Counted from the stretch's first letter, positions 8,506 through 64,000 are shown. The stretch is DNA of 64,000 bases from Prochloraceae cyanobacterium (GCA_040377855.1 JBEINY010000001.1:6814-70813); one strand, 5' to 3'. Notes: a model not told the origin generated them from the letters alone. Made by a program: numbers and translations.

Positions 8506-8526
8506 CCTGGAAACCTGACTGGCCCG

Positions 8527-9135: not shown

Positions 9136-9220
9136 GGGGCAAGTGAACGGAATCTAGGGGGGCTCCCGCCGGGAGGCGTCGGCCAGGGACAATGCGTTCA
9201 TCCGAGTGGCCGCCAGCCCC

Positions 9221-44776: not shown

Positions 44777-44848
44777 GGGTCGCTAGCTCAGCGGTAGAGC
44801 ACTCGGCTTTTAACCGATTGGTCCTGAGTTCGAATCTCAGGCGACCCA
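44777..44848 (+). tRNA. tRNA-Lys (anticodon UUU)
   Basis: I folded a manual cloverleaf. The acceptor gggtcgc pairs with gcgaccc. The D arm is gctc-agcggta-gagc. The anticodon arm is ctcgg-cTTTTaa-ccgat, with TTT at positions 34-36. The T arm is ctgag-ttcgaat-ctcag. The discriminator is A and there is no encoded CCA. Confidence 0.93.
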
Positions 44849-46449: not shown

Positions 46450-49400
46450 TCAGCCCAGGGCCGTGCGGCAAACGGTGGCGCGGGATCCCTTCTCGGCGGC
46501 GGTGATCGCGATGCCAGCCCGGATCCGTTCCTTCAGGGCGCCCACGTGGCTGATCACCCCAATCATGCGGCCACCGTCCCGCAGGCGATCCAGCTCATCC
46601 ATCGCCAGCTGCAGGTTGTCGGGATCCAGGGTGCCGAACCCCTCATCAATGAACAGCGCCTCCAGATGGACGCCGCCGGCATGGGCCTGCACGGTGTCGG
46701 CCACCCCCAGGGCCAGGGCCAGGGAAGCCTGGAAGGTTTCGCCCCCCGAGAGGCTGCTCACCTCCCGCTCCTCCCCGGTATAGGCATCCAGCACCCTCAG
46801 GCCGAGACCGGCATGGCGCCCCCCCCGGCCCCCCTCATCCGTGAGACGGAGCTGGTAGCGCCCGGAGGTCATCAGTTCAAGCCGCTGGTTGGCGTAGCGG
46901 CAGATGTCCGCGAGATAGGCCGAGAGCACCCACCGCTGCAGGGAAATGAACGGGGCCGTGCGGCCGAGGCAACGATCCGCCACCGCATTGAGCAGCCGGG
47001 CCTGCTCCTGCCGCTGCCCCAGCACCCGGTCCCCCTGGCGGTGTTCCTCCGCCAGTCGGGTGATTTCGGCGTTGGCATGACGTGCCTCGCTCTGGCGTTC
47101 CAGGGCAACATTGCGACCGGCATCGGCGCTGGCCAGCGCGTCCAGGGCCGCGGCGGTATCGGGCCGCTGCTCCGGCAGATCCGCCAGATCCTCAGAAGCC
47201 AACAGGCCCCGCCCCTGGATGAGCTCGCGGTCGTAGGTGTCGATCCGCTTCTGCAGCTCCTGCCGCCAGCTCTCATCCTTCAGGGCGGCCCTGACGGCGG
47301 CGCCGTCGCTGAAGTTGGTGCCGGCGAGCTCCTGGAGCAGCCGCCCAGTCGCCTGCTGCAGCCTGGCCTGGGCACCACTGCTGGCCTCCGCCCCGGCGGC
47401 CAGCTGCTTCAGGGCCGCCCCGAGGGGGTCCAACCCAAGCTGGGCCTGCTGCGGATCAACCCCCTCACCGAGCACCCGCACGATCTCCGCGTGCAGGGTC
47501 AGGGCCCGTTGGCCGGCAGCCGCGGCGGCCTGGCGGTGCAGGGCCTGATCCGTGGTTGCGGTCTGCAGGACCTGCTGCAGCGCCTGCAGCTCCCGGTCGT
47601 GGGTCTCAATCGCCGCCTGCAGGGTGTTGGCTTCGGCGGCCTGGGCGCGGGCCAGCTTCAAGGCCAGGGCAGCGTTGTCCATGGCCGCGGCGGCGGCCGG
47701 CGGATCCAGGGCCGCCGCGCCGGCCTGCTCCAGCAGCGCCTTCAGCTCAGCCTCAACGGTGGCGAGGGCAGCGGCCCCACGGCGGGCCCCCTCCGTGGCC
47801 ACCGCCAGCTGGCGCTCCGCCTCCCGGATCGCCGAATCGGCCACGGCCCCATCGGCGCCCTGGGCGGGGGTCGGATGATCCGTTGAACCGCAGACCGGAC
47901 AGGGATCCCCAGCCACCAGGTTGCCCGCCAGCCGGGATGCCATGCCGGCCATCTGCTCCTGACGCAGCGCCCCAAGGGCGGCCTGGCAACGGTGGAGCTC
48001 GCCATCGGCCCTCTGCTGGGCGGCCATGGCGGTCGCCCTCGAAGCGGAGGCAGCCCTGATCGCCACCACAGCGTCCAGACGCTGCTGGGCCTCGCGGGCA
48101 GCGCGCTCCAGACCATCGAGCTGGTCGCGGGCCGTGCAGGCCCGCTGGAGAGCCTCGCTGGCCTGCTGCCGTTGTTGCTGCCGATGCTCCCGGGTGGCAG
48201 CGCCACGGGCCAGGGAGCCCTCCGCGGCCGTGGCCAAACGGATCGCCTGGTCAGCGGCCGCGCGGGCCTGGGCCGCCTCCAGGGCCTGACGGACCAGGAC
48301 CGCCAGCTCCGCCCGCCAGGCCGCCAGGGCACTGCGGGCCTCCACCAGCTGCTCCTGGCTGGGCAGGGTGCCCAGATCCAGGCGCGTCAGCGGAGCCGGC
48401 AGGGCCAGGGCATCGTCACGGGCCCGTTCCGCATCGCGGAGCCCCTGCTCGAGTCGTTGCTGCAGCTGGGTCAGTTCGAGGCGAGCAGCGGCCTCCGCGT
48501 CCAGGCTCCCCCGCAGCACCTCAGCCCGCTCAGCCCGCTGCAGCCGCTGGCGGAAGTCGGCCACGACGGCCGCCTTGCCCTCCAGCTCCATCAGGCGGGC
48601 GATCGCCGCCGCGCGCCGGTCCCAGCGATCCGCCTCACGATCGATCCTGGTCCGGGCCCCCTGGGCCGCCTCCATGGCAGCGCTGGCCTGCTGATAGCGG
48701 GCGGCCGCCGCCGCAACCACAGCCCCCATCCGCTCCTGGAGCCGATCCAGATCCTGCTGATCGGCGGGTGCCTCCGGTGCGCCCTCCTCCCCCAGCGGCG
48801 TCCCTGCCATGGCAAAGGGCGTCCAGGCCTGGGCCACCTGGCGGCGCAGCACCTCCTGGCCCCGGGTCTGCTCCGCCAGTGCGATGCGAGCGGCCTTGGC
48901 CTTCTCCTCGAGCCAGAGCCCCGCCTGCTCGAAGATCAGGGTGTTGAAAAGGGTTTTCAGCAGGGCCTCCCGCTCCTCCGCCCGGGCCCTCAGCACCTCA
49001 GCGAACTTCCCCTGGGGCAGGAGAATCACCTGGCGGAACTGGGCGGCATTGAGGCCCACGAGCTGCTCCACCTCCCGACTCACCTCAGTGCTGCGGCTGG
49101 CGAGCGGCTCCAGCTCGGCACCGTTGCGCCGGAAGAGCACCGCCTGGGCCGCCTTTTCGGTGAACCCCTGGCCGCGGGCCTTGGGGGCGCTGTAGGCCGG
49201 CGAGCGCTCCACCCGATAACGGAGACCGCCACAGGAAAAGTCGAGACCGACCCGCGGCACCGCTCCCGGCTCTGCGTGATCCGACTTCAGCCCCTTGAGA
49301 TTCCGATCCCCCGACACCTCGCCGTAAAGCGCGAAGCAGAGGGCATCGAGAAGAAACGTCTTCCCGGCCCCGGTGGTGCCGTGGATCAGGAACAAGCCCT

Positions 49401-49482
49401 CATCGCTGAGGGCATCGAAATCGATCTCCGTGGGCTCGACATAGGGACCGAAGGCCTCGATCCTCAGCAGGTGTGGCTTCAA
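46450..49482 (-). CDS. sbcC: SbcC-type SMC-like ATPase (exonuclease SbcCD, C subunit)
   Basis: N-terminal Walker A (LIHGTTGAGKTFLLDA), a very long Ala/Gln/Leu coiled coil with a central CxxC zinc hook (DPCPVCGS), C-terminal signature LSGGETFQASLALAL and Walker B FIDEGFGTLD. The TTG start overlaps the sbcD stop. Confidence 0.9.
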   Translation of the reverse strand: MKPHLLRIEAFGPYVEPTEIDFDALSDEGLFLIHGTTGAGKTFLLDALCFALYGEVSGDRNLKGLKSDHAEPGAVPRVGLDFSCGGLRYRVERSPAYSAPKARGQGFTEKAAQAVLFRRNGAELEPLASRSTEVSREVEQLVGLNAAQFRQVILLPQGKFAEVLRARAEEREALLKTLFNTLIFEQAGLWLEEKAKAARIALAEQTRGQEVLRRQVAQAWTPFAMAGTPLGEEGAPEAPADQQDLDRLQERMGAVVAAAAARYQQASAAMEAAQGARTRIDREADRWDRRAAAIARLMELEGKAAVVADFRQRLQRAERAEVLRGSLDAEAAARLELTQLQQRLEQGLRDAERARDDALALPAPLTRLDLGTLPSQEQLVEARSALAAWRAELAVLVRQALEAAQARAAADQAIRLATAAEGSLARGAATREHRQQQRQQASEALQRACTARDQLDGLERAAREAQQRLDAVVAIRAASASRATAMAAQQRADGELHRCQAALGALRQEQMAGMASRLAGNLVAGDPCPVCGSTDHPTPAQGADGAVADSAIREAERQLAVATEGARRGAAALATVEAELKALLEQAGAAALDPPAAAAAMDNAALALKLARAQAAEANTLQAAIETHDRELQALQQVLQTATTDQALHRQAAAAAGQRALTLHAEIVRVLGEGVDPQQAQLGLDPLGAALKQLAAGAEASSGAQARLQQATGRLLQELAGTNFSDGAAVRAALKDESWRQELQKRIDTYDRELIQGRGLLASEDLADLPEQRPDTAAALDALASADAGRNVALERQSEARHANAEITRLAEEHRQGDRVLGQRQEQARLLNAVADRCLGRTAPFISLQRWVLSAYLADICRYANQRLELMTSGRYQLRLTDEGGRGGRHAGLGLRVLDAYTGEEREVSSLSGGETFQASLALALGVADTVQAHAGGVHLEALFIDEGFGTLDPDNLQLAMDELDRLRDGGRMIGVISHVGALKERIRAGIAITAAEKGSRATVCRTALG

Positions 49483-50666
49483 CGGTCCCCTCCGCCGCTG
49501 GCCGCCTGCAGGGCCTGCCGCAGCAACGCCGCCTCGGCGGGAGCCGCCGGTCGCCCCTGCTGATCCGCGAAGAACGACAGGCCCAGATCCAGGGGTGAGG
49601 TGGCTGCGCGCACCTGCTGGTTGCGCTCGATCGCCGTGGCCTGCAGCCCCTGGGGGGGCCGGTGCCGCAACTCGGCCACGTGGGGAAAGCGTCGGCGCAG
49701 GCGAGCCATGGCCTGCAGGGGCAGCACCTCATCGGTGAGGATCACCCGCACCCAGGCATCCACCGCCCCCTCGAACTGCGAATCCGTGCAGAGGGCCTCG
49801 ATGCCTGCCTCGAGGGTCCGCAACGGACGACCCACCTGCAGGGGCACGATCTCCACCGTGGGCGTGCCGGCCTGATCGAGTTCCACGAGCCGCACCGACT
49901 TGGTGTGGTGCTGCTCCGAAAAGGAATAGGCCAGGGGGGTGCCGGAATAGGCCACCCGCGGCCCATCGAGCTGCTGGGAGCCATGCAGGTGTCCGAGGGC
50001 CACGTAGTCGAAGCCAGCGAAGGTGTCGACCCTGACCCGATCGACCTGGCCGACCGTGAGCTCCCGTTCGGATTCGCAGGATTCCCCTCCAGCGGCAAAG
50101 GTGTGGGCCACCAGGATCGAGCGGTGGCCGGATCGCCGACGCTGATCGAGCCGGATCCGCTCCAGGGCCAGCTGCGTCACCTCCTGATGACTGATGCGGG
50201 TGGAGGCGGCTGCGCTGATCCGGTCCGGGGCCTCCAGCAGAAACGGACCATCAACCGCGGGGTCGAGGTACGGCAGGGGGTAGATCGCCACCGGCCCGCC
50301 GCCGGAACGGGGCGTCACGACCACCGGCTCATCGGAGCGGCGGACATCACCGCGGATGGTGACCCCGAAGGCCGACAGCAGCGAGTCGTAGATGGAGACG
50401 CGCACATGGGAATCGTGGTTACCGGCGATGGCCACCACAGAAGCTCCGCCGCGGCTGAGCCGGGCCAGGGTGTCGTTGAACAGCTGCACCGCTTCCGCTG
50501 GCGGGATGGCGCGGTCGTAAAGATCACCGGCGATCAGCACCGCATCCACCTCGGCCTCGGCGGCCAGCGCCACGATGCGGTCCATGGCGGCCGCCTGTTC
50601 CTGCAGCAGGGAAGCCCCATGGAACTGCCGGCCCAGGTGCCAATCGGAGGTATGTAGAAACCGCAT
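49479..50666 (-). CDS. sbcD: SbcD/Mre11-type nuclease
   Basis: Phosphoesterase motifs MRFLHTSDWHLG, GDLYD, GNHD and GHLH are present. Length is 395 aa. Confidence 0.93.
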   Translation of the reverse strand: MRFLHTSDWHLGRQFHGASLLQEQAAAMDRIVALAAEAEVDAVLIAGDLYDRAIPPAEAVQLFNDTLARLSRGGASVVAIAGNHDSHVRVSIYDSLLSAFGVTIRGDVRRSDEPVVVTPRSGGGPVAIYPLPYLDPAVDGPFLLEAPDRISAAASTRISHQEVTQLALERIRLDQRRRSGHRSILVAHTFAAGGESCESERELTVGQVDRVRVDTFAGFDYVALGHLHGSQQLDGPRVAYSGTPLAYSFSEQHHTKSVRLVELDQAGTPTVEIVPLQVGRPLRTLEAGIEALCTDSQFEGAVDAWVRVILTDEVLPLQAMARLRRRFPHVAELRHRPPQGLQATAIERNQQVRAATSPLDLGLSFFADQQGRPAAPAEAALLRQALQAASGGGDR

Positions 50667-51354: not shown

Positions 51355-52161
51355 TCAGAGCCCGGGGCTGCTCTGCATGATGCCGCCGTCGGCAAAGATC
51401 GAGGTGGCGGTGATGTAGCTGGCGGCATCACTGGCGAGGAACGCCACCACCGACGCCACCTCATCCGGCTGGGCCATGCGACCCATCGGGATGGCGGCAT
51501 TGAGCTTGGCCAGAAGCTCGGGGTTGTTCATCGTTGAATCATTGATCGGCGTGGCCACGGCACCCGGACCCACATTCACGATCGTCACCCCATGGGCGGC
51601 CAGCTCAACCCCGGCGGTACGGGTGAGCATGCGCACGCCACCTTTCGCCACGCAGTAAGGGGTGTTGTTGGGCATCGGCCAGTCTTCATGCACCGAGGAG
51701 ATGTTGATGATCCTGCCGCCACCGCCCTGGGCGATCATCTGCTTGGCGGCATACTGCGTCGCAAAAAAGACGCCCCTGAGATTGATATTGAGAACCTTGT
51801 CGTAGTCCTCAGGAGTGGTGTCGAGGATCGAGGTGCGGGTTTCGATGCCTGCATTGTTGACCATCACATCAAGACGCCCAAAACGATCGACCGCTGCATC
51901 AATCAGACGCTGAAGATCTTCGAGTTTGCCCACATCGGCCTGGAACCCGAAACTGCAACCGCCGAGTTCGCCGATTTCCTGCTCGATCGCCTCGGTGGCC
52001 TCGGGATGGGAGCGGTAGTCGATCACCACCTTGGCGCCCAGCCGGGCGATGCGCTCAACGATCGCCTTGCCGATGCCACTGTTTCCGCCGGTCACGATGA
52101 TCACCTTGTCCTGGAGCAAGGTGGCCAGGGTGGCGTTGGCGTAGGGATTGGTGCCAGTCAT
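51355..52161 (-). CDS. SDR-family glucose 1-dehydrogenase-like oxidoreductase
   Basis: TGGNSGIGKA cofactor motif, NNAG, the catalytic S...YCVAK, and the tail GRMAQPDEVASVVAFLASDAASYITATSIFADGG. The overall pattern is close to Bacillus-type Gdh. Confidence 0.85.
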   Translation of the reverse strand: MTGTNPYANATLATLLQDKVIIVTGGNSGIGKAIVERIARLGAKVVIDYRSHPEATEAIEQEIGELGGCSFGFQADVGKLEDLQRLIDAAVDRFGRLDVMVNNAGIETRTSILDTTPEDYDKVLNINLRGVFFATQYAAKQMIAQGGGGRIINISSVHEDWPMPNNTPYCVAKGGVRMLTRTAGVELAAHGVTIVNVGPGAVATPINDSTMNNPELLAKLNAAIPMGRMAQPDEVASVVAFLASDAASYITATSIFADGGIMQSSPGL

Positions 52162-53286: not shown

Positions 53287-54210
53287 GTGGTGATTGCCAA
53301 TCCATCCGCCTGCACCGAGAGCTACGACCCTCGGTTTGAGCCGCTGGTTCTCTTCAATGCCGAGCTCGAGCTGCTGGCCGAAGGCTTTCGCTGGCTGGAG
53401 GGCCCGGTCTGGTTCGGCGACCACGACTGCCTGCTCTTCAACGACATCCCCTCCAACCGCACCTTGCGCTGGAGTGAGCGCCATGGCGTCACCACCTTCC
53501 GGGAGCCATCGGATTTCGCCAACGGCCAGACCCGTGACCGGCAGGGCCGCCTGATCAGCTGCCACCACCGCAGCCGCTGCCTGCGCCGCCGTGAACACGA
53601 CGGCAGTGACACCACCCTGGTGAGCCACGCCCAGGGCCACCGCCTCAATGCCCCCAACGATGTGGTGGTCAAGAGCGACGGCTCGATCTGGTTCAGCGAT
53701 CCGCTGTACGGCCTGTTGAACGACTACGAAGGGGGCCGCCAGAGCTCTGAGCAGGGTCCAGCTCTCTATCGCCTCAACCCCGGCAGCGGGGAGGTCACCA
53801 TGGTGGCCAATGATTTCGATGGTCCCAACGGGCTGGCCTTCTCCCCCGATGAGCGCCTGCTCTATGTGGCGGAGTCCGGGGCCGCCGGGGTGGCTGAACC
53901 CCACCAGTTTCTGCGGGTGTTTGAGGTCGGCGACGACGGCCGCTCCCTCAGTGGCGGTAGGCACTTTCACACCGTTCAGCCCGGCTGGGCCGATGGCTTC
54001 CGGGTCGATGAGCACGGCAACCTGTGGTGCGGAGCGGCCGATGGCGTCCATTGCATCGCCCCGGATGGCACCTTGATCGGCAAGGTGATCGTGCCGCAAC
54101 GGGTCTCGAACCTCTGCTTCGGCGATCGCTTCCATAGCCGCCTGTTTCTCTGCGCCTCCACCCGGCTCTACGCCCTGTTCACCAACACCCGCGGCGTTCA
54201 GCGACCCTGA
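53287..54210 (+). CDS. SMP-30/gluconolactonase/LRE-family lactonase
   Basis: LAEGFRWLEGPVWFGD...LLFNDIPSNR...ANGQTRDRQGRLISC...NAPNDVVVKSDGSIWFSDP...GPNGLAFSPDE..LYVAES...ADGFRVDEHGNLW. GTG start. Confidence 0.88.
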   Translation: MVIANPSACTESYDPRFEPLVLFNAELELLAEGFRWLEGPVWFGDHDCLLFNDIPSNRTLRWSERHGVTTFREPSDFANGQTRDRQGRLISCHHRSRCLRRREHDGSDTTLVSHAQGHRLNAPNDVVVKSDGSIWFSDPLYGLLNDYEGGRQSSEQGPALYRLNPGSGEVTMVANDFDGPNGLAFSPDERLLYVAESGAAGVAEPHQFLRVFEVGDDGRSLSGGRHFHTVQPGWADGFRVDEHGNLWCGAADGVHCIAPDGTLIGKVIVPQRVSNLCFGDRFHSRLFLCASTRLYALFTNTRGVQRP

Positions 54211-54519: not shown

Positions 54520-55926
54520 ATGCGCCTTGATCCCTGCCTGGAGCTCGCCGACTGCCAGGCCATCGCCGATGCCGCGCTGAACGTGGCCAGGCGCCTTGGC
54601 GGCGGCGTCAGCCTGGCGGTGGTGGATGGTGGCGGCCAGCTGCTGCTGGCCCTGCGGCTGGATGGGGCCTCGCCGGTGAGCGCCGAAGCGGCCCTGGCCA
54701 AGGCCCGTCTGGCGGCCCTCAGTGGCAAGAGCAGCGCCAGCTTCGAGGACGCGATCAACGGCCCGAGGCCAGCCCTGGCCCAGCTGACGGCAGCGATCAG
54801 CCAACCGGCTGCCGCCATGGCCGGTGGTCTCCCCCTGGTCACGGCCGGCCGCTGCATCGGAGCGATCGGCATCTCCGGCCGCACGCCTACGGAGGATGGC
54901 GCCATTGCCGCCGCCGGCGTTGAGGCCTTTGGGGCCCTGATCCAAAACGGCCCGCGCCCAAGGATCCTGGGCTTCGGCTTCACCTGCCAGGACGCGAAGG
55001 CCAGCGCCAGCTTCTATCAGCAGCACCTCGGCTTTCGCCTGCTGGCGGAAGAGACCCTCGATCCCGGCGGCTATGGGGTCCTGCTCGGTCTGCCCCACGC
55101 CCGCCTGAGGCGCGTCCAACTGGCCCTCGGCCAGGAACATTTGGAGCTGCTGGAGGTGGTGGATCCCGGCCAGGGCCAGCGCGCGGGCCGGCCCCTGCCC
55201 ACCGATTCCCGCAGCTGCGATCTTTGGTTTCAGCACCTGTGCCTGGTGGTGTCCTCCATGGATGCCGCCGCCGCCGGGATCGAGGCATTGATTCAGGACG
55301 GCCAGCTCAGCCCGATTTCCCAGGCACCGCAGCGACTGCCGGACAGCAACCCATCGGCAGGCGGGATCGTGGCGTTCAAGTTCCGCGATCCCGACGGCCA
55401 TGCCCTGGAATTGCTTCAATTCCCCGAAGGCCGCGGTGAGCCTCGCTGGCACGCCCCGGCCGCGGGGGGCATCCCCCAGCTCGGCATTGACCACAGCGCC
55501 ATCAGCATCAGTGATCCGGCCCGCAGTGGCAGCTTCTATGGCGAACTCCTCGGCCTGAGGCTCGCCCCGCCCGGCCTGAACGTCGGCCCTGAGCAGGATC
55601 GCCTCGACGGGCTTGACGACACCAAGGTGAGCATCAATCCCTACCGCTGTGGGGTGGGTCCGGGGCTGGAGGGCCTGGCCTACCGGCCCCCGACCACGGG
55701 CCGGGCGATGCCGATCGATCACAGCAGTCAGGACCTCAGCCACTGGCGCACGCGGCTGGCGATCACCGATCTTGAGCGCACCATGGACCAGGTGGCCTCC
55801 TATGGCGGGCAGGTGGTTGGGGAAGCGGTGACCCTGGGGGCAGGGGAGGCCGCCTCCCTGGGATTCCGACGCGGGGTGACGGTGCTCGATCCTGACGGCC
55901 ACAGCCTGCAGCTGGTGGAAACCTGA
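54520..55926 (+). CDS. three-domain fusion protein: GlcG/DUF336 (heme-binding-like) plus two VOC (glyoxalase/extradiol-dioxygenase fold) modules
   Basis: The N-terminus (AIADAALNVARRLGGGVSLAVVDGGGQLLLALRLDGA...GGLPLV.AGRCIGAIGISG.T...D) is GlcG-like. Two VOC-like units follow, ending ...FKFRDPDGHALELLQFPEG and ...VTVLDPDGHSLQLVE. The gene starts 6 nt after the Nif11-like stop. Confidence 0.8.
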   Translation: MRLDPCLELADCQAIADAALNVARRLGGGVSLAVVDGGGQLLLALRLDGASPVSAEAALAKARLAALSGKSSASFEDAINGPRPALAQLTAAISQPAAAMAGGLPLVTAGRCIGAIGISGRTPTEDGAIAAAGVEAFGALIQNGPRPRILGFGFTCQDAKASASFYQQHLGFRLLAEETLDPGGYGVLLGLPHARLRRVQLALGQEHLELLEVVDPGQGQRAGRPLPTDSRSCDLWFQHLCLVVSSMDAAAAGIEALIQDGQLSPISQAPQRLPDSNPSAGGIVAFKFRDPDGHALELLQFPEGRGEPRWHAPAAGGIPQLGIDHSAISISDPARSGSFYGELLGLRLAPPGLNVGPEQDRLDGLDDTKVSINPYRCGVGPGLEGLAYRPPTTGRAMPIDHSSQDLSHWRTRLAITDLERTMDQVASYGGQVVGEAVTLGAGEAASLGFRRGVTVLDPDGHSLQLVET

Positions 55927-56046
55927 AGGCCTGCAGGCCCTGAAGGCATGGAGGGCCCGATGGCATCAAGACGACAACAGACGAACGGAGGTCGATGACG
56001 GTCAGGGAGAGCCTGCCTACCTTGACTCCAGATTAAACCCCCCTGG

Positions 56047-56544
56047 ATGACGATCACAATCGTTGAGCTGCTGGTGCCATCCGGGCCATCACCCTTGGCC
56101 CAGGGCAGCCTGCTGGGGTTGCGGGTGTTTCTTGGGATCTGCTTCATCCGCCACGGCTGGCCGAAACTGCGCAACCTCGACACCTGGGCCACGGCGATGA
56201 AAACGCCGAAATGGCTCTGCTTCCTTTCCGCCTTCTCGATGTGGGGCGCTGGCATCGCCCTGATTCCAGGCCTTCTCACCCCTCTGGCCGCCCTGGCGAT
56301 CCTGGTGTCGATGGCCTATGCCTGCGTGGTTGAGATCCTGGCCGGTTTCCCCTTCATCGCCCCTGACCCCTACCAGATTCCCAAAGGTGATTACGTCGGA
56401 CCGATGGGGATCGGGGAACCACCCAGCTGGGAGAAAGCGGCGATGTATGTGGTCATGTGCCTGGTGCTTGCCACCTGCGGCGGCGGGGCCTTCTCCGTTG
56501 ACACACTGCTGCTCAATGATCTGCTGAACTCCCTGCTGAGCTGA
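56047..56544 (+). CDS. DoxX-family membrane protein
   Basis: LLGLRVFLGICFIRHGWPKL...four TM helices...GGGAFSVDTLL is the DoxX pattern. Length is 165 aa. Confidence 0.8.
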   Translation: MTITIVELLVPSGPSPLAQGSLLGLRVFLGICFIRHGWPKLRNLDTWATAMKTPKWLCFLSAFSMWGAGIALIPGLLTPLAALAILVSMAYACVVEILAGFPFIAPDPYQIPKGDYVGPMGIGEPPSWEKAAMYVVMCLVLATCGGGAFSVDTLLLNDLLNSLLS

Positions 56545-56690
56545 GCCGAGAATTGAACAATCGACGATAGATCAATCGGTGATGGATCAATCGAAGAAGG
56601 GCGAGATCTGAACAGGGGAAGCCAGGTTGGGAACAGTCCAAGACTGATGCACCCACCTGGCTCCTGGGGTGCCACTCGACCCCCGGATGA

Positions 56691-58346
56691 TCAGACCCCG
56701 AGGCGCTCCTTCAGGTGATCGCCGACCCTGAGGGCATTGGCAATCGCCGTGAGGGAAGGATTAACAGCGCCAATCGTGGGCATGAAGCTCGTATCAACCA
56801 CATAGAGGTTATCGAGCTCGTGGGCCTTGCAATTGAGATCGAGCACAGAGCTGGAGGGATCGCCACCGAAACGGCAGGTGCCGGCCTGGTGACCCACTGC
56901 GGCAATCGACATCGTGTTCTTAAAGTAGATCTGACGCTCCACAAGATGGTTGCGTAGATAAAGGCGATCCAGCAGTGACGTCAGCCTTCCGGTCAGACGC
57001 TCAATGGCAGTCTGGTTGTTGGGGGTATAGCTGAGGTGGATGTGACCGTCGCGATCCACCGTAACCCGGTTGGCAGGATCGGGAAGGTCCTCGGACGAAA
57101 TCCAGAAATCAAGGGCGTGCTCGGCGATCTTGTCCATCGACCAGCCGGGCATCAGGAAGGTCTCCAGGGGAGCATATCCCTTCATGATCTGACCATTGGT
57201 CTTGCCGGTCATTTGGATGTTGCCCATCGGGTAGTCGAAGTCCGCATCTCCGAGATACCAGTCGTTGATGGAAATGGTTTTCTGAAAGACGGTGGTGTTC
57301 GGCTCGTGGGCTAGGGCCACCATCGCCTTGCTGTTGTGAAACATGTAATTTCGGCCAACCTGGTCGGAGCCATTCGCCAGGCCGCGAGGATGCCTGTCAT
57401 TGGCAGACATGAGCAGCAGACGGGCTGAATTGGCGGCCCCACAGCTGACCACCACCACATCACCGCCAACCCGCATCGGCACCCCATCCCGTTCCAGTTC
57501 GATGGCGGTGACGGTGCGACCGTCTGCATCGGTGTGCAGTCGCAGCACCTGGGCCCGGGTCAGCAGCGAAACGGAACCTGCCGCCAGCGCCGGACGCATG
57601 CCGAGCACCTCCGCGTCACTCTTGGCATGCACCAGGCAAGGGAAACCATCACAGCAATTGCACTTCCGGCAGCGACTGAAGGCCATGTTGGCCTCATCCA
57701 GCATCACGCCACTCGGCGCATGGAAGGGGTGCAGACCCGCAGAGCGCAGGTCGTCCACCATCTTCTGAATGCGAGGCTCGTGGGCGATCGGCGGATGGGG
57801 ATAGGGACCACTGCAGGGGGGTTCGGTGGGATCCTCGCCCCGCTGCCCATGGACGTGATACATCTCCTCGGCCCGTTGATACCAGGGCTCGAAATCGGAA
57901 TAGCGCAGGGGCCAGGCAGGAGAGATGCCGTCGAAATGGCTCAGCTCCTCAAAGTCCTGTTGCCGCAACCGAAAGTGGGCCGCCCCGTACATCTTCGTGG
58001 CGCCGCCGACGAAGTAATGGCTTCCGGGCTGAAATGACTTGCCGTGTTGATCGAACCAGGTGTCGCTGGAAACGTAGCGTCCCTTCTGGAACACCTCCTC
58101 CGCATTCCAATTCTGGGGTTCCTGCGGGAGCCAGTCGCCCCGCTCCAGCACCAGAACACGCAGCCCGGTAGGGGCCAGATGGCGAGCCAAGGTGCCACCA
58201 CCAGCACCGCTGCCAATAATCACCACATCGAAATGCTGGCCATCCACGCTCTCCGGCTGAGCCGTGCGAGGCATGGAGGCATTGTGAAACGGAGGCCCGG
58301 CCGTGGCGACAAAGGACGTCGCAGCGGCGTGATCAGACTGGGACAT
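56691..58346 (-). CDS. GMC-family FAD-dependent oxidoreductase (copy 2)
   Basis: The track start 58439 is TTG. I prefer ATG 58346, with ATG 58274 as an alternative. FDVVIIGSGAGGGTLARHLA (ADP-binding) and a GMC C-terminal region (...GTCRFG.DP..SVLD..CKAHELDNLYVVDTSFMP..GAVNPSLTIAA). Confidence 0.88.
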   Translation of the reverse strand: MSQSDHAAATSFVATAGPPFHNASMPRTAQPESVDGQHFDVVIIGSGAGGGTLARHLAPTGLRVLVLERGDWLPQEPQNWNAEEVFQKGRYVSSDTWFDQHGKSFQPGSHYFVGGATKMYGAAHFRLRQQDFEELSHFDGISPAWPLRYSDFEPWYQRAEEMYHVHGQRGEDPTEPPCSGPYPHPPIAHEPRIQKMVDDLRSAGLHPFHAPSGVMLDEANMAFSRCRKCNCCDGFPCLVHAKSDAEVLGMRPALAAGSVSLLTRAQVLRLHTDADGRTVTAIELERDGVPMRVGGDVVVVSCGAANSARLLLMSANDRHPRGLANGSDQVGRNYMFHNSKAMVALAHEPNTTVFQKTISINDWYLGDADFDYPMGNIQMTGKTNGQIMKGYAPLETFLMPGWSMDKIAEHALDFWISSEDLPDPANRVTVDRDGHIHLSYTPNNQTAIERLTGRLTSLLDRLYLRNHLVERQIYFKNTMSIAAVGHQAGTCRFGGDPSSSVLDLNCKAHELDNLYVVDTSFMPTIGAVNPSLTAIANALRVGDHLKERLGV

Positions 58347-58464
58347 GGCAGTGGAACGAGAGTTGTGAAAAGGGAAACAACAACGGAGGCCAGGCCCGGA
58401 CTGGCGAAACTGGGGAGCCTGGGGGATTCCAGGTGGCAATCGTGATCAGACCTGGCGATCGTGA

Positions 58465-61158
58465 TCAGGCCTGGGGATAACGGCTCAGCTGCTGGATCAA
58501 CTTGGCGACCATGGCGCTCCAGCCGGTCTGGTGGGATGCACCGATACCGGAACCGTTATCGCCATGGAAGTACTCGTTGAACAGGATCAGGTCCCGCCAG
58601 TGGGGATCGTTGTGGAACAGATCGACGGAACCGTTGAAAGGCCTGCGGCCATCGTCATCGCGACGGAAGAGAGCCACCAATCGCTTTTCGAGCTCCAACG
58701 AAGCCTCCCAAAGGGTGATCCAGTGACCCGAGCGGGTCGGGAATTCAACCAGAAAACTATCGCCATAGAAGTGGGCAAACTTCTGCAATGACTCAATCAA
58801 GAGGAAATTGATCGGCATCCAGACAGGGCCACGCCAGTTGGAATTACCTCCAAACATCGCCACAGGGCTGTCCGCTGGGCTATAGGCAAGGCTCTGACTT
58901 TGATCACCCTCGGTGTAGCTATAAGGCTGCTCACCGTAGACCTTCGAAAGGGAACGGATGCCATAGGGCGAGAGGAATTCATCCTCATCAAACAGGCGTT
59001 CGCAGATGCGCCGCAGATAGCTCTCGGGTACAAGACTGAAGAGGATGCGGTCGTTGTGCCAGCGGCCCAGGTTGGCCTGCAACCAGGTGGGAGTGGTGCG
59101 CTCATGCACAAACCAGGACATGCTCTTGAGCACGTCTAGCACCGGCACTCGCAGGACCGTTTCAACGTCAAAACTGGCCACCGCAAGCAGGGGAACCAAA
59201 CCAGTCAGGGAACGGGTTCTCAGGAAGTCAGTGCTGCCATCTGGACGCTTGATAACGTCGTAATAAAAACCATCCTCCTCATCCCAATTCACATAGTTGC
59301 GGTCGCCCTTGCAATTGAGAGTGATGGCAAGCTGCACAAAGTCATGTACAAAGCGCTCACAGAGATCCTCGTACTCCGGCTCCTCAACACTGAGCTCCGT
59401 ACAGATTGTGAGCAGATTGAGGCTCAGGGAAGCCATCCAGGCAGTGCCATCGCACTGCTCGATCCGGCTGCCATCATGCAGGGGGAAACGACGATCAAAA
59501 ATCGCAATGTTGTCGAGGCCAAGGAACCCTCCCTCAAACACATTGTCACCGGAACGGTCGTTGCGATTGGCCCACCAGCCGTATTCAAGCAGCAGCTTGC
59601 GAAGGGCAGCCCTCAGGAAGGGGCGATCCGACTGGTCGGTCTGTTTGCGATGGATCTGATAAATGCGCATCGCCGCCCAGGCGCCGATCGGAGGATTAGG
59701 GTCAGACAGGGCCCATTCATAGGCTGGTGTCTGGGCATTGGGGGCGGTGAAATGGGGTGAGCGCAGCAGCATCGCCTGCTCCTTGGCGGTCGCTGGATCA
59801 AAGGTGGCAAAGGCCACCGCATGGAACATCAGATCCCACTGACAGAAGTAGGGATATTCCCAGCTGTCGGGCATCACGATCACATCGTGGGCATGCAATC
59901 GCTTCCAATAAGCATTTTCTGTTTCCCAACGCTGCCTGGGGGGCTCCGGTTGGGTCGGATCTCCCTCAAGCCAACGAAGCACACTCCAGCCGTAATACTT
60001 CTTGCACCAGAGCAAGCCGGCGGTGGCCGCCGTATGAATCAGACGGTCGTCGTCCGACAGTCCCGGCGCAATGTGGTCGAAATAATGACCCCATTCGTGT
60101 TCGCGGGCAGCAAAGATCTCAGCAAAAGGCTCTCCAAACGGCTCCGGAGCGGAGATGGAGCTGCGCTCCCGCAGCCGGAGCTCCACCACCCACTCTTCCC
60201 CCGCTGCCACCTCCCTGCGGACCACCTGGGCTGCCTTGGTCCCGACCGCTGCAGGATTGACAGCATCCATCTCACCGTCGATCACATAACGATGGAAGGC
60301 ATCCTTTTGATAAGGGGCGGCATTGGGCAGTCCATAGAGACGTTGATTGTTGGTCTCGTTCTCTGTAAACAGCCAGGCACCCTCTTCAGCACTGAGAAAT
60401 TCGTAGGACGGCAGGGATGAAAGGGTGGGGGTGATCACCCGATCACCCTCCAGCCGCATCGGCTGGTGCTGCTCATCCGGATAGCCCCACGACCAGGTGT
60501 TGCGAAGCCAGAGGGTGGGCAACAACACCAGGGGAGCGGGCTTGTCGCCACGGTTGATGATTCGAACTCGAATCAGGAGATCGGAGGGTGAAGCCTTGGC
60601 GTATTCGATGAAAACGTCAAAATAGGCATTGTCATCAAAAATACCCGTATCCACCAATTCGTATTCAGGCTCCTCCCGAGTACGGCGACCGTTTTCCTCC
60701 ACCAGGTGCTCATAGGGGAAGCGACCCTGGGGATACTTGTAGAGCCCCCGCATGAAGCTGTGGGTGGGCGTATTGGCGAGGTGGAAGGTGTAATCCTTGA
60801 TGTCCTCGCCGTGGTTTCCCTCAGGATTACCAAGACCGAAGGGACGCTCCTTCAGGATCCGATCCTCACCGTTCCAGAGCGCCAGCGAAAAGCAGAGACG
60901 GCATTGGTCATCGCAGATGCCAAGCAGGCCATCTTCCCCCCAGCGGTAGGTGCGGGAGCGGGCGTGGTCATGGGGGAAGGAGACCCAGGCGTTGCCATCG
61001 GCGGAATAGTCCTCCCGCACGGTTCCCCACTGGCGGTCACTGAGGTAGCTGCCCCACAACGACCAGGGCTCCAGGCCCTGGTCGCGCTCCGCCAGGCGAC
61101 GCATCTCAGACGGTTCAAGGTGCTGGAGATTCGTGCTTCCAGATGCGTCGAGGGTCAT
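58465..61158 (-). CDS. large GH63-like (MGH1-like, (alpha/alpha)6 barrel) glycoside hydrolase, the 'glucosidase' family of about 890 aa
   Basis: 897 aa. The N-terminal conserved run WSLWGSYLSDRQWGTVREDYSADGNAWVSFPHDHARSRTYRWGEDGLLGICD and the C-terminal catalytic-domain pattern (…FGGNSNWRGPVWMPINFLLIESL…) match how I remember this bacterial family. Much lower GC than the upstream 56 kb. Confidence 0.82.
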   Translation of the reverse strand: MTLDASGSTNLQHLEPSEMRRLAERDQGLEPWSLWGSYLSDRQWGTVREDYSADGNAWVSFPHDHARSRTYRWGEDGLLGICDDQCRLCFSLALWNGEDRILKERPFGLGNPEGNHGEDIKDYTFHLANTPTHSFMRGLYKYPQGRFPYEHLVEENGRRTREEPEYELVDTGIFDDNAYFDVFIEYAKASPSDLLIRVRIINRGDKPAPLVLLPTLWLRNTWSWGYPDEQHQPMRLEGDRVITPTLSSLPSYEFLSAEEGAWLFTENETNNQRLYGLPNAAPYQKDAFHRYVIDGEMDAVNPAAVGTKAAQVVRREVAAGEEWVVELRLRERSSISAPEPFGEPFAEIFAAREHEWGHYFDHIAPGLSDDDRLIHTAATAGLLWCKKYYGWSVLRWLEGDPTQPEPPRQRWETENAYWKRLHAHDVIVMPDSWEYPYFCQWDLMFHAVAFATFDPATAKEQAMLLRSPHFTAPNAQTPAYEWALSDPNPPIGAWAAMRIYQIHRKQTDQSDRPFLRAALRKLLLEYGWWANRNDRSGDNVFEGGFLGLDNIAIFDRRFPLHDGSRIEQCDGTAWMASLSLNLLTICTELSVEEPEYEDLCERFVHDFVQLAITLNCKGDRNYVNWDEEDGFYYDVIKRPDGSTDFLRTRSLTGLVPLLAVASFDVETVLRVPVLDVLKSMSWFVHERTTPTWLQANLGRWHNDRILFSLVPESYLRRICERLFDEDEFLSPYGIRSLSKVYGEQPYSYTEGDQSQSLAYSPADSPVAMFGGNSNWRGPVWMPINFLLIESLQKFAHFYGDSFLVEFPTRSGHWITLWEASLELEKRLVALFRRDDDGRRPFNGSVDLFHNDPHWRDLILFNEYFHGDNGSGIGASHQTGWSAMVAKLIQQLSRYPQA

Positions 61159-62672
61159 CAGAACTCACCCTCCAGGACAGCGGCGATACGCAGAGAGTTG
61201 GCAATCACGGTGAGGCCAAACCCCATCAAGGGACAGGAGGGCAGAACACTGGCGTCGGCAATGGTGAGGTTGGCCACCTCGTGGCTGCGGCCCTGCAGGT
61301 TCACCACGGAGGTGGCAGGGTTCTCACCCATGCGACAGGTGCCGCAGCTGTAACCCATCACGGAAAGGGGAGCCTCACCCCGGGGATGGGTGGGCGCCTT
61401 CTGGACCACCAGGGTTTCCGGGTCGGCCTCCACCTCCTTGAGGGTGTCGAGCCACCGGTAGACGAGCCGGTCGTGGGCCTCCCGGTTGTTGGGCAGGTAC
61501 TGGACCTGGAGGCGATCCCCCCGCAGGCTGACGCGGTTGTGGGGATCGGGCCTGACCGGACTCATGGCCCACCAGCTCACCGAACGGGAGGCCAGTTGTT
61601 CCAGGCCGAGGTTGGGCAAAAGCTTGGTGACCAGCGACAGCACGGGGGGAGACTCCGCAAAGAGGGCGTCCTGGAGCACGCCGCCACCGCTCTGGATCGC
61701 ACCGAGGGGGAAGGACACGTTGCGATCGCCCCAGAGGAAGTCGTTGATGCCAAGACCCCGCGCATAGCGGCCCCGATTGGGGGCTCCGGCCAGCTGAAGG
61801 ATGGAGGTCATCTGCAGCTTCATCAGATTCCGGCCGACCTGGTCGGATCCATTGGCCAGCCCGCGGGGATGCTGGTCGGAACTGGAGCGCAGCAGGATGG
61901 CGGCGCTGTTGATGGCACCGGCAGCAAGCACCACGTGGTGGCCGAAGAACATCCAGGGCTGGCCATCGATGCTTGCCTCCACCCCACGAATCTCCCGCCC
62001 GCTGGGGCTGACATGCAGGGCCTGAACCCGGGCACCGCCGCGCACCACCGCCGTCGGGCGGGTCCGCATCGGTTCGACACCGAAGATCTCGGCGTCTCCA
62101 CTGGCATCAACCCGGGATTCCGACCAGCTCAACGGCAGGTCGTAGGGGCGGACGCCGTGACGTTGAAGGTCGTGACGAAGGGCCTCGAGGAAGGGCTCCA
62201 GGGGACGGGGCTCGAGGCCGTATTCGCCCTGACGAGGAGGTTCGGTGGGATCGATTCCGGCCCGGCCGTGCACACGGAACAGGGTTTCGGCCTGCTCGTA
62301 CCAGGGGGCCAGGGCGTCATAGCCCAGGCCCCAGGACGGCGTCGATCCCTCCTGCAGGGTGAGGCCATTGAACTCCTGCTCCCGCATGCGCTCAAGCACC
62401 CCGCCCCAGATTTTGGTATTGCCACCGTGGGCATAGACCATCTGGGGGGCAAAGGGGTCCCCATCGGTGCCGATCCATGGCTCCGGAGGGTGATAGCGAT
62501 TCTTACGGAACAGATCAACATCGGCCACATTCTGGTCCTCCTGCGGCAATACCCCACCACGCTCCAGCAACAGAACAGAACGGCCCTTGGCCGACAGTTC
62601 AGAGGCCAGGGTGGCTCCAGCCGCACCACTGCCGATCACAATGATGTCGTAATGGCGGTCGTCGATGATCAT
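61158..62672 (-). CDS. GMC-family FAD-dependent oxidoreductase (copy 1)
   Basis: YDIIVIGSGAAGATLASELS, ...GTCRMGENPATSVVNLQGRSHEVANLTIADASVLPS. Length is 504 aa. Its ATG lies 2 nt after the ctaE stop, and its stop overlaps the hydrolase ATG (TGATG). Confidence 0.9.
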   Translation of the reverse strand: MIIDDRHYDIIVIGSGAAGATLASELSAKGRSVLLLERGGVLPQEDQNVADVDLFRKNRYHPPEPWIGTDGDPFAPQMVYAHGGNTKIWGGVLERMREQEFNGLTLQEGSTPSWGLGYDALAPWYEQAETLFRVHGRAGIDPTEPPRQGEYGLEPRPLEPFLEALRHDLQRHGVRPYDLPLSWSESRVDASGDAEIFGVEPMRTRPTAVVRGGARVQALHVSPSGREIRGVEASIDGQPWMFFGHHVVLAAGAINSAAILLRSSSDQHPRGLANGSDQVGRNLMKLQMTSILQLAGAPNRGRYARGLGINDFLWGDRNVSFPLGAIQSGGGVLQDALFAESPPVLSLVTKLLPNLGLEQLASRSVSWWAMSPVRPDPHNRVSLRGDRLQVQYLPNNREAHDRLVYRWLDTLKEVEADPETLVVQKAPTHPRGEAPLSVMGYSCGTCRMGENPATSVVNLQGRSHEVANLTIADASVLPSCPLMGFGLTVIANSLRIAAVLEGEF

Positions 62673-62674
62673 GG

Positions 62675-63274
62675 CTAGGCCCAGAGATAGAGCAGGACAA
62701 ACAGGAGGATCCAGATCACATCCACGAAGTGCCAGAACAACGATGTGGCCTGCACTCCCTGCTCACCACCATCGTAGTTACCAGGGATGAATGAGCGGAT
62801 CAGCATGATCGTCATCAAAAGAATGCCCGTGGCGACATGGAGACCATGGAAACCGGTGAGGAGGTAGAACATCCCCCCAAAACTGCCGGAATCAAAACCA
62901 AAGCGAAGCCCACTCCACTCCACGGCCTGGCCGTAGAGGAAATAAAGACCCATCAGCATGCTCAGGAACCAGAACCCCCGGAACAAAGCCATGTTCTCCC
63001 GGGCCTTGAAATGTTCTGCCAGAGCAATTGTGCCGCTACTGGAAACAAGCACAACCGTGTTGATCAATGGTTTGCCGATCTCGAGCCCCTCAACACCGGG
63101 CGGGTACCAGTCGAGAGCGTTGAGCTTGAGAATGGCATAACCGCTGAAAAAAGCCAGAAAGATTACGCTTTCAGAGCAGAGAAAAATGATGAACCCGGTG
63201 AGGTTGTGCTTGGGATGGGATTCGTGTTCCCCAGGCATCACTTCCAGGGTTTCCCTTGAATTGGCTTGGGTCAT
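62675..63274 (-). CDS. ctaE: cytochrome c oxidase subunit III
   Basis: 199 aa, the short 5-TM cyanobacterial type, with FFSGYA..., GFHGLHVATGILLM and WHFVDVIWILLFVLLY. Confidence 0.93.
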   Translation of the reverse strand: MTQANSRETLEVMPGEHESHPKHNLTGFIIFLCSESVIFLAFFSGYAILKLNALDWYPPGVEGLEIGKPLINTVVLVSSSGTIALAEHFKARENMALFRGFWFLSMLMGLYFLYGQAVEWSGLRFGFDSGSFGGMFYLLTGFHGLHVATGILLMTIMLIRSFIPGNYDGGEQGVQATSLFWHFVDVIWILLFVLLYLWA

Positions 63275-64000
63275 GGCTTCACCTCCATGGCAAGCAGTGC
63301 CTGTTCAATCTCCACCTGGTGCTCCACCAGAGGCTCCCCGGTGCCATAGCCATAGGGACCACGGATCACCGTGGGCACGTGCTCCTCGAAATTCTCGGCG
63401 GGAGGCGGCGATGGCAGCAGCCATTCCAGCCCGATCGCCTGCCAGGGATTGGAAGAGGCCTTCGGTCCCCGCAACCAGGAACTGATCATGTTGAGAAGAA
63501 ACGGAATGATCGAAACCCCAAGCAGGAAGGCCCCAAGACTGGCGAGCACGTTCCAGAAGGCGAACTGAGGGTCGTAGGAAGAAACCCGGCGGGGCATGCC
63601 CATCAACCCGAGGGGGTGCATGGGCAGGAAGTTGAGATTGGCACCAAGGAAGGTGAGGGCAAAATGAAGCTTGCCCAAACCTTCATAGGTCATGTGACCG
63701 GTAAACTTCGGGAACCAGTGATAGATCGCTGCGAAGATTCCCATCACGGCCGCGCCATAAATCACATAGTGAAAATGGCCAACCACGAAGTAGGTGTTGC
63801 TGACATGAAGATCAATCGGCACGGTGGCAAGCATCACGCCGGTGATGCCCGCGAACACAAAATTGAACAGGCCACCGATGCAGAAGAGCATCGCCGTTGT
63901 CAGGCGGATCTTTCCTCCCCACATGGTGGCCAGCCAGGCAAACACCTTCACCCCCGTAGGCACCGCAATCAGCATGGTGGTGACCATGTAGAGGTTGCGC
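63271..64000 (-). CDS. ctaD: cytochrome c oxidase subunit I (C-terminal part; N-terminus lies beyond the window edge)
   Basis: …HVSNTYFVVGHFHYVIYGAAV…GMPRR…PFLLNMISS… The frame stays open to position 64000, and the track lists only the part from an internal Met. The stop overlaps the ctaE ATG (ATGA at 63271-63274). Confidence 0.93.
   Translation of the reverse strand, partial: RNLYMVTTMLIAVPTGVKVFAWLATMWGGKIRLTTAMLFCIGGLFNFVFAGITGVMLATVPIDLHVSNTYFVVGHFHYVIYGAAVMGIFAAIYHWFPKFTGHMTYEGLGKLHFALTFLGANLNFLPMHPLGLMGMPRRVSSYDPQFAFWNVLASLGAFLLGVSIIPFLLNMISSWLRGPKASSNPWQAIGLEWLLPSPPPAENFEEHVPTVIRGPYGYGTGEPLVEHQVEIEQALLAMEVKP

Follow-up and report, generated by a model that had tools for sequence, protein, structure and literature searches.

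Genes of the locus and the type of oxidase

A stretch of 64,000 nucleotides (nt) from a Prochloraceae cyanobacterium (GCA_040377855.1, JBEINY010000001.1:6814-70813), referred to as the window, carries near its end a row of minus-strand genes in which subunits of a terminal oxidase, known as alternative respiratory terminal oxidase (ARTO), are followed by two flavoproteins of the GMC fold, designated GMC1 and GMC2, and a glycoside hydrolase resembling family GH63. The first gene in the direction of transcription is ctaD2, encoding ARTO subunit I, of which the C-terminal part is present (63271..64000; Pfam COX1, E=1.4e-58) and which runs past the window end. It is followed by ctaE2 for ARTO subunit III (62675..63274, 199 amino acids (aa); Pfam COX3, E=6e-31), the gene for the ARTO-linked GMC1 (61158..62672, 504 aa; Pfam GMC_oxred_C/N), the GH63-like gene (58465..61158, 897 aa; Pfam MGH1-like_GH and Glyco_hydro_63), and, after a spacer of 118 nt (58347..58464), the gene for GMC2 (56691..58346, 551 aa; Pfam GMC_oxred_C/N), a candidate sugar dehydrogenase with flavin adenine dinucleotide (FAD) and an Fe-S cluster. 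All these domain matches exceed the Pfam gathering scores. The ctaD stop and the ATG of ctaE overlap in the sequence ATGA, two nucleotides (cc) separate the ctaE stop codon TAG from the ATG of GMC1, and the A of the GMC1 stop TGA is at the same time the first base of the GH63-like gene's ATG (TGATG). The gap of 118 nt after GH63 results from an ATG start of GMC2 at 58346; an in-frame TTG at 58439 would shrink it to 25 nt. These five minus-strand open reading frames (ORFs) had been described in a first-pass annotation of the window, and their coordinates and overlaps were all exact upon re-checking.

Scans for promoter- and terminator-like consensus sequences yielded sites no commoner than in shuffled sequence, and none of them at any junction. 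The intergenic region between GMC2 and the convergent DoxX gene (56545..56690, minus strand) is predicted to fold into a structured RNA of -62.5 kcal/mol (z = -2.4 versus shuffles) without a U-tract. It is probably the 3' end of the operon and may serve as a bidirectional terminator. The spacer in front of GMC2 holds a 19-nt tandem duplication, TGGC[AG]ATCGTGATCAG[AG]CC, at 58434-58471 across the GH63 stop, and a third copy of 11 nt is found at 58328-58338. Neither spacer nor repeat is kept in other species, and the repeat, which was discarded, looks like a local slippage duplication. The G+C content drops to 0.58-0.62 in the part of the window containing the oxidase and flavoprotein cluster (56001-64000), while most of the window shows values of 0.64-0.71.

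The window holds only the 3' part of a cluster of eight genes in the order DUF2231a, DUF2231b, ctaC, ctaD, ctaE, GMC1, GH63-like, and GMC2. The part outside the window was read from a metagenomic contig, L001, with an identical GMC1 and the same neighbour genes. On this contig, the operon lies on one strand with overlaps of 1-4 nt, and DUF2231a, DUF2231b, ctaC, and ctaD specify proteins of 165, 207, 321, and 568 aa, respectively. Thus, the operon is opened by two paralogous genes for DUF2231 membrane proteins (L001:5617-6737; orthologues in L004-L163). DUF2231a has four predicted helices and the invariant histidines H20, H25, H91, and H152, and DUF2231b the invariant histidines H31, H36, H75, H124, H175, and H189; in both proteins they are situated at predicted helix ends. 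These sets may be heme or metal ligands, which would make the DUF2231 pair the membrane redox partner that otherwise appears to be missing. That no cytochrome subunit is visible holds for the window itself, but the scope of this earlier statement was too narrow considering the two histidine-rich membrane proteins at the head of the operon. A literature search for DUF2231 returned one unrelated database paper and nothing on its function.

In subunit II of the oxidase, LRDSQFSGTWFAANQ stands in place of the CuA motif (H...CxExCGxxHxxM), and all 69 orthologues are free of cysteine beyond residue 150. CtaD of L001 (Pfam COX1, E=1.7e-152) has kept all six histidines ligating heme and CuB as well as the cross-linked Tyr (TMHG, SHPAVY, VHHMF, GHFHY). 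The motif WFYSHPAVY, in which Tyr-Ser replaces the helix-VI Glu, is present in 69 of 69 CtaD orthologues (ctaD of L001 at 7696-9402), and we take it to be the A2-type signature of heme-copper oxidases in the Pereira classification. Judged by these sequences, the oxidase is of the ARTO type, a heme-copper oxidase without CuA. The CuA-less subunit II answers in favour of ARTO what had been left as a choice between this type and a third cta copy; a further cta set is not present in the 64-kb window or in the 27-kb contig. Since CuA is lacking, neither cytochrome c6 nor plastocyanin can serve as electron donor to an enzyme of this type. A CuA-less subunit II is the defining pattern of ARTO, which is generally regarded as a quinol oxidase and for which it is not settled if there are more than three subunits (PMC6616624). 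Orthologous oxidase genes of marine strains have been named ctaC2D2E2 (PMC10119275). Three-subunit heme-copper oxidases with a subunit II devoid of CuA are also known as ARTO from Synechocystis (CtaCII-CtaDII-CtaEII) and Anabaena PCC 7120 (alr2729-alr2730-coxB3-coxA3-coxC3), and the Anabaena operon likewise has two extra small ORFs before the oxidase genes (PMC6616624). Unlike in these model strains, GMC1 follows here without interruption and, in this lineage, a glycosidase and a second flavoprotein. No description of such a flavoprotein or glycosidase extension of the model-strain ARTO operons was found in the literature.

Conservation of the cluster and its lineage-restricted part

One genome per species was scanned, yielding 272 species with a relative of GMC1, and the best 80 were analysed by tblastn with all proteins of the cluster. 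A fully flanked set, with 10 kb on either side, comprised 45 species-level loci. DUF2231a, DUF2231b, ctaC, and GH63 were detected in all of these and GMC2 in 43; among the carriers are Cyanobium usitatum, Synechococcus RCC307, MIT S9452, and Aphanothece cf. minutissima. The operon is widely kept in small cyanobacteria of fresh and brackish water. Distances between the genes were determined in 64-79 species from gene models built on tblastn hits, with start codons picked heuristically. The median gaps are -1 nt for DUF2231a-DUF2231b, -4 nt for DUF2231b-ctaC, 4 nt for ctaC-ctaD, and -4 nt for ctaD-ctaE (78 species). Between ctaE and GMC1 the median is 3 nt, with 30 nt or less in 75 of 79 species, and between GMC1 and GH63 it is -4 nt, with an overlap in 68 of 79. 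The junction GH63-GMC2 is more variable (median 45 nt, range -4 to 265). Tight spacing of cta, GMC, and hydrolase genes, from which co-transcription and translational coupling had been deduced in the first-pass annotation, is therefore kept across more than 100 picocyanobacterial genomes or contigs and fits both. Synteny also argues against a peculiarity of one strain with pseudogenised partners: the cluster is found in 45 of 45 flanked loci, no partner is pseudogenised, and the GMC1 ORF is full-length (504-509 aa) in 83 of 83 loci. Taking genome and metagenome scans together, ctaE is located on the same strand not more than 300 nt upstream of GMC1 in 140 out of 143 independent loci and, therefore, this arrangement is not due to chance.

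A metagenome scan seeded with GMC1 of RCC307 added 80 contigs. On contigs of the marine type (GC 0.47-0.64) and on Prochlorococcus-like contigs (GC 0.30-0.37), the operon has the order DUF2231a-DUF2231b-ctaC-ctaD-ctaE-GMC1 and ends at GMC1; on contig L117, the next gene is convergent and disulfide-reductase-like. For 48 contigs, at least 3 kb downstream of GMC1 are available, and GH63 was present in 17 and absent from 31 of them. The GH63-GMC2 tail was seen in lineages of the Cyanobium type (5.2) and the RCC307 type (5.3) and in freshwater lineages of low GC. These comparisons show GMC1 to be the universal downstream partner of ARTO, with the deep link being the one between ARTO and GMC1, and the GH63-GMC2 sugar module to be a lineage-restricted addition. 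The glycosidase had been proposed as a partner of the oxidase, which fits the gene order in the Cyanobium, RCC307, and low-GC freshwater lineages, but the universal partner is GMC1 instead. Likewise, the idea that a compatible solute is the substrate is weakened, because the marine Synechococcus- and Prochlorococcus-like lineages, whose contigs lack GH63 and GMC2 at this locus, are the glucosylglycerate accumulators. On some contigs, a second GH63-like paralogue of about 50% identity is located straight after GMC2 (L066:15875-18514, L070, L087, L089, L090, L092, L093, and L096).

The arrangement could also reflect co-regulation only, in darkness, under stress, or at low iron. GMC2 would then feed the general plastoquinone pool or another acceptor, and ARTO would be one of several sinks. 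The GH63-GMC2 module being dispensable in marine lineages is in line with such an explanation, as is the lack of a cytochrome c or small subunit that ties GMC2 to a specific partner, and a CuA-less ARTO is usually considered a quinol oxidase (PMC6616624). However, junctions of the coupling type (2-4 nt or overlaps) persist on both sides of GMC1, towards ctaE as well as towards GH63, over deep divergence, which is unusual for stoichiometrically unrelated genes, and DoxX, HbpS/VOC, and short-chain dehydrogenase/reductase (SDR) genes re-associate with the cluster after rearrangements. Co-regulation as the sole reason is possible, but appears rather doubtful to us.

The core of the cluster has been catalogued before. 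Dore et al. (2023, ISME J, PMC10119275) list as Pro-eCAG_016/Syn-eCAG_015 two DUF2231 genes, ctaC2, ctaD2, ctaE2, and a 'choline dehydrogenase-like flavoprotein' (CK_00001536), which is the same six-gene core as described here. In marine strains these genes lie together; they vary jointly in the Tara Oceans data and are enriched in low-iron waters, and the Prochlorococcus counterpart was placed in genomic island Pro_GI032 (PMC10119275). The flavoprotein is contained only in a supplementary table; the text discusses the oxidase and reads the cluster as an iron-limitation trait (PMC10119275). Neither a GH63-like gene nor a second flavoprotein is mentioned in the searchable text and supplements of that study, which are likewise silent on the missing catalytic residues of GMC1 and on the Fe-S motif in GMC2, both described below; searches of the supplements gave no glycosidase, lactonase, or DoxX (PMC10119275). 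Beyond its supplement, nothing relevant to a functional link of GMC proteins, choline dehydrogenases, or flavoproteins to ARTO was detected in the searchable literature. The earlier remark that no described cta operon of this content was known must thus be withdrawn for the six-gene core, but applies to the extended operon, which is not in the searchable literature. The same is true for the asymmetry of the two flavoproteins, the Fe-S motif, and the recurrent association with DoxX and sugar genes.

Two dissimilar flavoproteins and a GH63-like protein

GMC1 and GMC2 are paralogues with 36% identity (E=3e-110). The closest solved structures for GMC2 are the alpha subunit of FAD-dependent glucose dehydrogenase (FAD-GDH) from Burkholderia cepacia (6a2u_B, E=4e-43) and the large subunit of fructose dehydrogenase (FDH) from Gluconobacter (7w2j_A, E=8e-33), both belonging to complexes whose electrons enter the respiratory chain. 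GMC2 aligns end to end with these catalytic subunits, carries the N-terminal FAD-binding pattern GxGxxG...E, and has kept the catalytic residues His476 and Asn519. The motif GHQ[AVS]GTCRFG including H476 is present in 59 of 63 GMC2 orthologues; the motif AVNPSLT including N519 was detected by strict pattern in 45 of 63, the other sequences not having been inspected. A cysteine-rich loop at the site of the 3Fe-4S ligands, C-x2-C-x2-C-x4-C, is contained in every GMC2 orthologue inspected and is aligned with the corresponding region of the B. cepacia enzyme, but its spacing differs from the CC-x4-C-x3-C of FAD-GDH and FDH. Another difference to these complexes is the terminal oxidase encoded in the same operon. 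According to these alignments, GMC2 is shown to group with FAD sugar dehydrogenases linked to the respiratory chain and to possess the sequence hallmarks of their FAD/Fe-S catalytic subunit. There is good reason to propose for GMC2 the role of a sugar dehydrogenase relaying electrons over an Fe-S cluster, with a substrate that would be supplied by the GH63-like enzyme.

Gene neighbourhoods of distant GMC2-like genes were also informative. On one contig (L170:3775-11572), one strand harbors genes for GH57, GMC, DoxX, an ABM protein, a sugar transporter of the MFS family, a zinc-dependent alcohol dehydrogenase (Pfam Glu_dehyd_C), and GH15. On another (L169:2442-7986), GMC and glucose-6-phosphate dehydrogenase (G6PD) genes are divergent from cytochrome bd oxidase genes, and in a further context an SDR-GMC pair has G6PD and Pgl close by. 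Such sugar or respiration contexts recur independently around distant GMC2-like genes of unrelated organisms and were counted as support for a role in sugar metabolism. The names of distant family members in the source databases are generic. A protein of 894 aa encoded beside a distant GMC relative (L176) was considered as a GH63-like homologue, but is not homologous.

The source databases label the GMC proteins as 'choline dehydrogenase-like flavoprotein', and aldehyde dehydrogenase, aminotransferase, and B12-dependent mutase-like genes adjoin some of the distant relatives. Both observations would suit ordinary alcohol, choline, or amino-alcohol oxidoreductases or oxidases forming H2O2, in which case the GH63-like protein would act in glycogen or compatible-solute turnover and the vicinity of cta genes would be irrelevant to respiration. 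The NCBIfam models for BetA/choline dehydrogenase, however, give scores of about 50 bits only (TIGR01810, 43-51 versus a cut-off of 732; PRK02106, 55-56 versus 605), and choline dehydrogenase was rejected as an assignment. Among characterised proteins, respiratory sugar dehydrogenases come closest, the Fe-S-type motif of GMC2 is a trait of dehydrogenases passing on electrons and not of oxidases, and gene order is kept in more than 100 loci. Ordinary oxidoreductases without connection to ARTO are, therefore, very unlikely.

The picture is different for GMC1. Its nearest solved structures are again the catalytic subunits of B. cepacia FAD-GDH and Gluconobacter FDH (E=1e-20), and the FAD-binding pattern GxGxxG...E is retained (VIGSGAAG...LLERG). 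The position equivalent to the catalytic histidine is occupied by Y, F, S, G, Q, V, A, or L, and by H in only 4 of 83 sequences. The residue depends on the clade: Cyanobium sequences have S, G, Q, V, A, or H, those of the marine and Prochlorococcus-like contigs Y or F. The residue equivalent to the catalytic asparagine is G or P, and eleven residues are deleted at the site of the Cys loop. Earlier, both GMC proteins had been taken as possible sugar dehydrogenases; by its sequence, GMC2 with its catalytic dyad and Fe-S-type Cys motif has the appearance of such an enzyme, but not GMC1, in which His, Asn, and Cys loop are missing. In an exhaustive search covering 1.84 billion cluster representatives, the GMC1 orthologues formed a single tight clade. 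The next relatives, with 40% identity or less, are all of the GMC2 type with His and Asn present, most of them with the Cys motif and some without (e.g. P0249). By this distribution, GMC1 is a derived, catalytically degenerate form of a GMC2-type protein. The CxxC in the GMC1 motif G[YF]xCGTCRMG was considered as a sign of a new flavin-disulfide chemistry, but this was dropped, since distant relatives containing the histidine also have cysteines at these positions (e.g. P0249, HQCGTCRMG). Prochlorococcus-like GMC1 proteins are longer (525-526 aa; L150:7001-8581 and the contigs L153, L155-L159, and L162 with a GC of 0.30-0.37) and have an insertion of about 20 residues with one Cys (...PSCSFFPRGDA) at the spot of the Cys cluster in GMC2.

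These features of GMC1 raise the question whether it is related to sugars at all. It could be an accessory or assembly subunit of ARTO or the electron input for another donor, for example in the reduction of Fe(III) that is proposed to depend on ARTO in iron-poor oceans, and GH63-GMC2 would be a later, functionally unrelated insertion. In accordance with this, GMC1 is universally found beside ctaE, including Prochlorococcus-like contigs, and has lost the dyad yet remained full-length and 60-95% conserved; the six-gene core tracks low-iron waters (PMC10119275), and it has not been settled that ARTO consists of three subunits only (PMC6616624). On the other hand, GMC2 is the closest paralogue of GMC1 and was inserted into the same operon with overlapping junctions, which suggests related roles. 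GMC1 in such a function, next to an unrelated insertion of GH63-GMC2, seems unlikely to us.

Sequence inspection and a hydropathy scan did not reveal an N-terminal hydrophobic or twin-arginine segment in GMC1, GMC2, or the GH63-like protein, bearing out that neither GMC protein has an obvious signal peptide, as noted before. The GH63-like protein matches PF22422 (MGH1-like_GH) with 76.6 bits versus a cut-off of 27 (E=3.6e-21) and PF03200 (Glyco_hydro_63) with 32.4 bits versus 22.4 (E=6e-8). A phmmer search of the PDB with the single sequence gave no match. A profile of the orthologues matched GH63 glucosidase I (4j5t, 5mhf) at WRGPVW and E-x-F-x-G...HxTGW. GLDN is conserved in 72 of 72 orthologues and NEYFHGD in 65 of 72, with HQTGW following NEYFHG. 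In the alignment, E862 falls on the Glu-containing motif of 4j5t, and D549 lies within the invariant GLDN, this Asp being assigned by the pattern of the hydrolase MhGgH and not by structural alignment. The roles of the Asp as acid and the Glu as base, including the G180-x-D182 pattern of MhGgH, were taken from PMC6608630. From these motifs, the protein appears to retain the catalytic Asp and Glu regions of GH63. It shares the Pfam GH63 and MGH1-like domains and the motifs G-L-D-N and N-E-Y-F-H-G...H-Q-T-G-W with processing alpha-glucosidase I (4j5t/5mhf), Escherichia coli YgjK, and mannosylglycerate/glucosylglycerate hydrolases. The latter comprise 450 aa, whereas the size and N-terminal extension found here resemble GH63 members acting on oligosaccharides. 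An identification with the cyanobacterial glucosylglycerol hydrolase GghA/Slr1670 was rejected, because GghA belongs to GHL5 and not to GH63 (PMC5002435).

A possible route from glycosides to oxygen

Candidates for further components are encoded in the neighbourhood. Past GMC2, convergent genes specify DoxX, a fusion of HbpS/GlcG with two VOC domains, a Nif11 peptide, an SMP-30/gluconolactonase-like protein, cupin-like and RidA proteins, and an SDR resembling glucose 1-dehydrogenase. In the window, the DoxX-family membrane protein (165 aa; Pfam DoxX, E=4.5e-12) is encoded at 56047..56544, the accessory protein with an HbpS/GlcG-like and two VOC/glyoxalase domains (468 aa; Pfam) at 54520..55926, and the accessory SMP-30/gluconolactonase-like protein (307 aa; Pfam SGL, E=9.5e-44) at 53287..54210, all on the plus strand, and the accessory SDR (268 aa; NCBIfam NF005559, 230.8 bits versus a cut-off of 215) at 51355..52161 on the minus strand. 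Within 10 kb of the cluster, an SDR gene was found in 28, HbpS/VOC in 27, and DoxX in 22 of 45 species, upstream in some loci and downstream in others; a close orthologue of the SMP-30/lactonase gene was found in 9 of 45. In genomes of the RCC307 type, GMC2, HbpS/VOC, DoxX, and SDR form directly one run on the same strand with SDR as the last gene. In RCC307, MIT S9452, and contig L045, HbpS/VOC is the gene immediately after GMC2 and has its orientation, and a DoxX homologue directly follows the distant GMC2-like gene in L170/L171. DoxX is, therefore, a candidate for the membrane or quinone partner of GMC2. The vicinity of a glucose-1-dehydrogenase-like SDR and an SMP-30 lactonase agrees with the context of sugar oxidation suggested in the first-pass annotation.

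Taking these data together, the following sequence of events can be envisaged. The GH63-like enzyme would cut an intracellular alpha-glycoside in the cytoplasm, freeing a hexose, and this hexose or a closely related sugar would be oxidised by the FAD of GMC2. Oxidation may occur at C1, yielding a lactone, since lactonase and glucose-1-dehydrogenase-like SDR genes adjoin. The Fe-S cluster of GMC2 would hand the electrons to a membrane acceptor, either plastoquinone via DoxX or the His-rich DUF2231 pair, from where they would proceed to O2 through ARTO. GMC1 could be a non-catalytic or otherwise specialised flavoprotein subunit docking soluble donors, such as GMC2 where present, to the ARTO module. 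Jointly, these steps would constitute a short respiratory branch of the cytoplasmic membrane. A dedicated branch of this kind, from sugar to O2 via the GH63-like enzyme, GMC2, and ARTO, is plausible, and we consider the chances to be evenly balanced. As gene linkage suggests, electrons would reach ARTO by plastoquinone and DoxX or by DUF2231 with GMC1 as adaptor.

Several points weigh against such a branch. Everything beyond the gene anatomy rests on gene association. GMC1, the flavoprotein coupled to ctaE, is without catalytic dyad, its His-equivalent varies freely, and it may be unconnected with sugar oxidation. Since marine lineages retain ARTO and GMC1 without GH63 and GMC2 at this locus, the pairing of ARTO with GMC1 must have a general function other than sugar or glycoside oxidation. 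Neither a 'hitch-hiker' small subunit with a twin-arginine translocation signal nor a multi-heme cytochrome c is encoded in the operon or its flanks at any locus, and the location of GMC2 would be cytoplasmic, not periplasmic as in FAD-GDH and FDH, because an export signal is missing. Since some distant relatives of GMC2 have aldehyde dehydrogenase, aminotransferase, and B12-mutase-like genes around them, thus lying in contexts of amino-alcohols or aldehydes, the GMC2 family is not uniformly sugar-specific. The matches of the GH63-like protein in the PDB are short C-terminal motifs only, by which the specificity is not narrowed. Structure predictions with AlphaFold2 were of too low quality to be used. 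Only homologues of at least 70% identity were supplied, and the alignments were too shallow, with 13 sequences for GMC1 (predicted local distance difference test (pLDDT) score 44.6) and 16 for the GH63-like protein (mean pLDDT 45). The latter model, which is not reliable, has strands at 180-331 followed by helices, compatible with an N-terminal beta-sandwich and an (alpha/alpha)6 barrel.

The components could also be connected more intimately. Instead of a free-standing plastoquinol oxidase, picocyanobacterial ARTO might form the terminal part of a substrate:O2 oxidoreductase that is complete in itself. The DUF2231 pair, perhaps carrying b-hemes, would be integral to it together with the degenerate GMC1, these subunits replacing electron entry at CuA. 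Electrons from a cytoplasmic dehydrogenase like GMC2 would then travel from FAD over the Fe-S cluster to heme a/CuB, bypassing the plastoquinone pool. This is a bold proposal and quite improbable.

ARTO is present in most cyanobacteria, including 85% of the marine Synechococcus reference genomes and Prochlorococcus of iron-poor oceans (PMC10119275). The conserved operon offers a concrete and testable lead to the electron source of this oxidase, whose donor, subunit make-up, and physiological role are still unsettled. If the sugar route operates, glycosides from stores or from import would be burnt in the dark by a pathway dedicated to this, with bearing on mixotrophy and dark survival of globally abundant picocyanobacteria, and GMC2 would be the first cytoplasm-facing relative of the FAD-glucose dehydrogenases of the biosensor type.

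The remaining part of the window at 22310-50666 contains ordinary housekeeping genes, among them genes for a DeaD helicase, RecBCD-like genes (25010-34019), and a TrmFO-like gene. A flavoprotein of the amine-oxidase family is encoded at 40771-42375, one tRNA gene is located at 44777-44848, and SbcCD is specified by 46450-50666.

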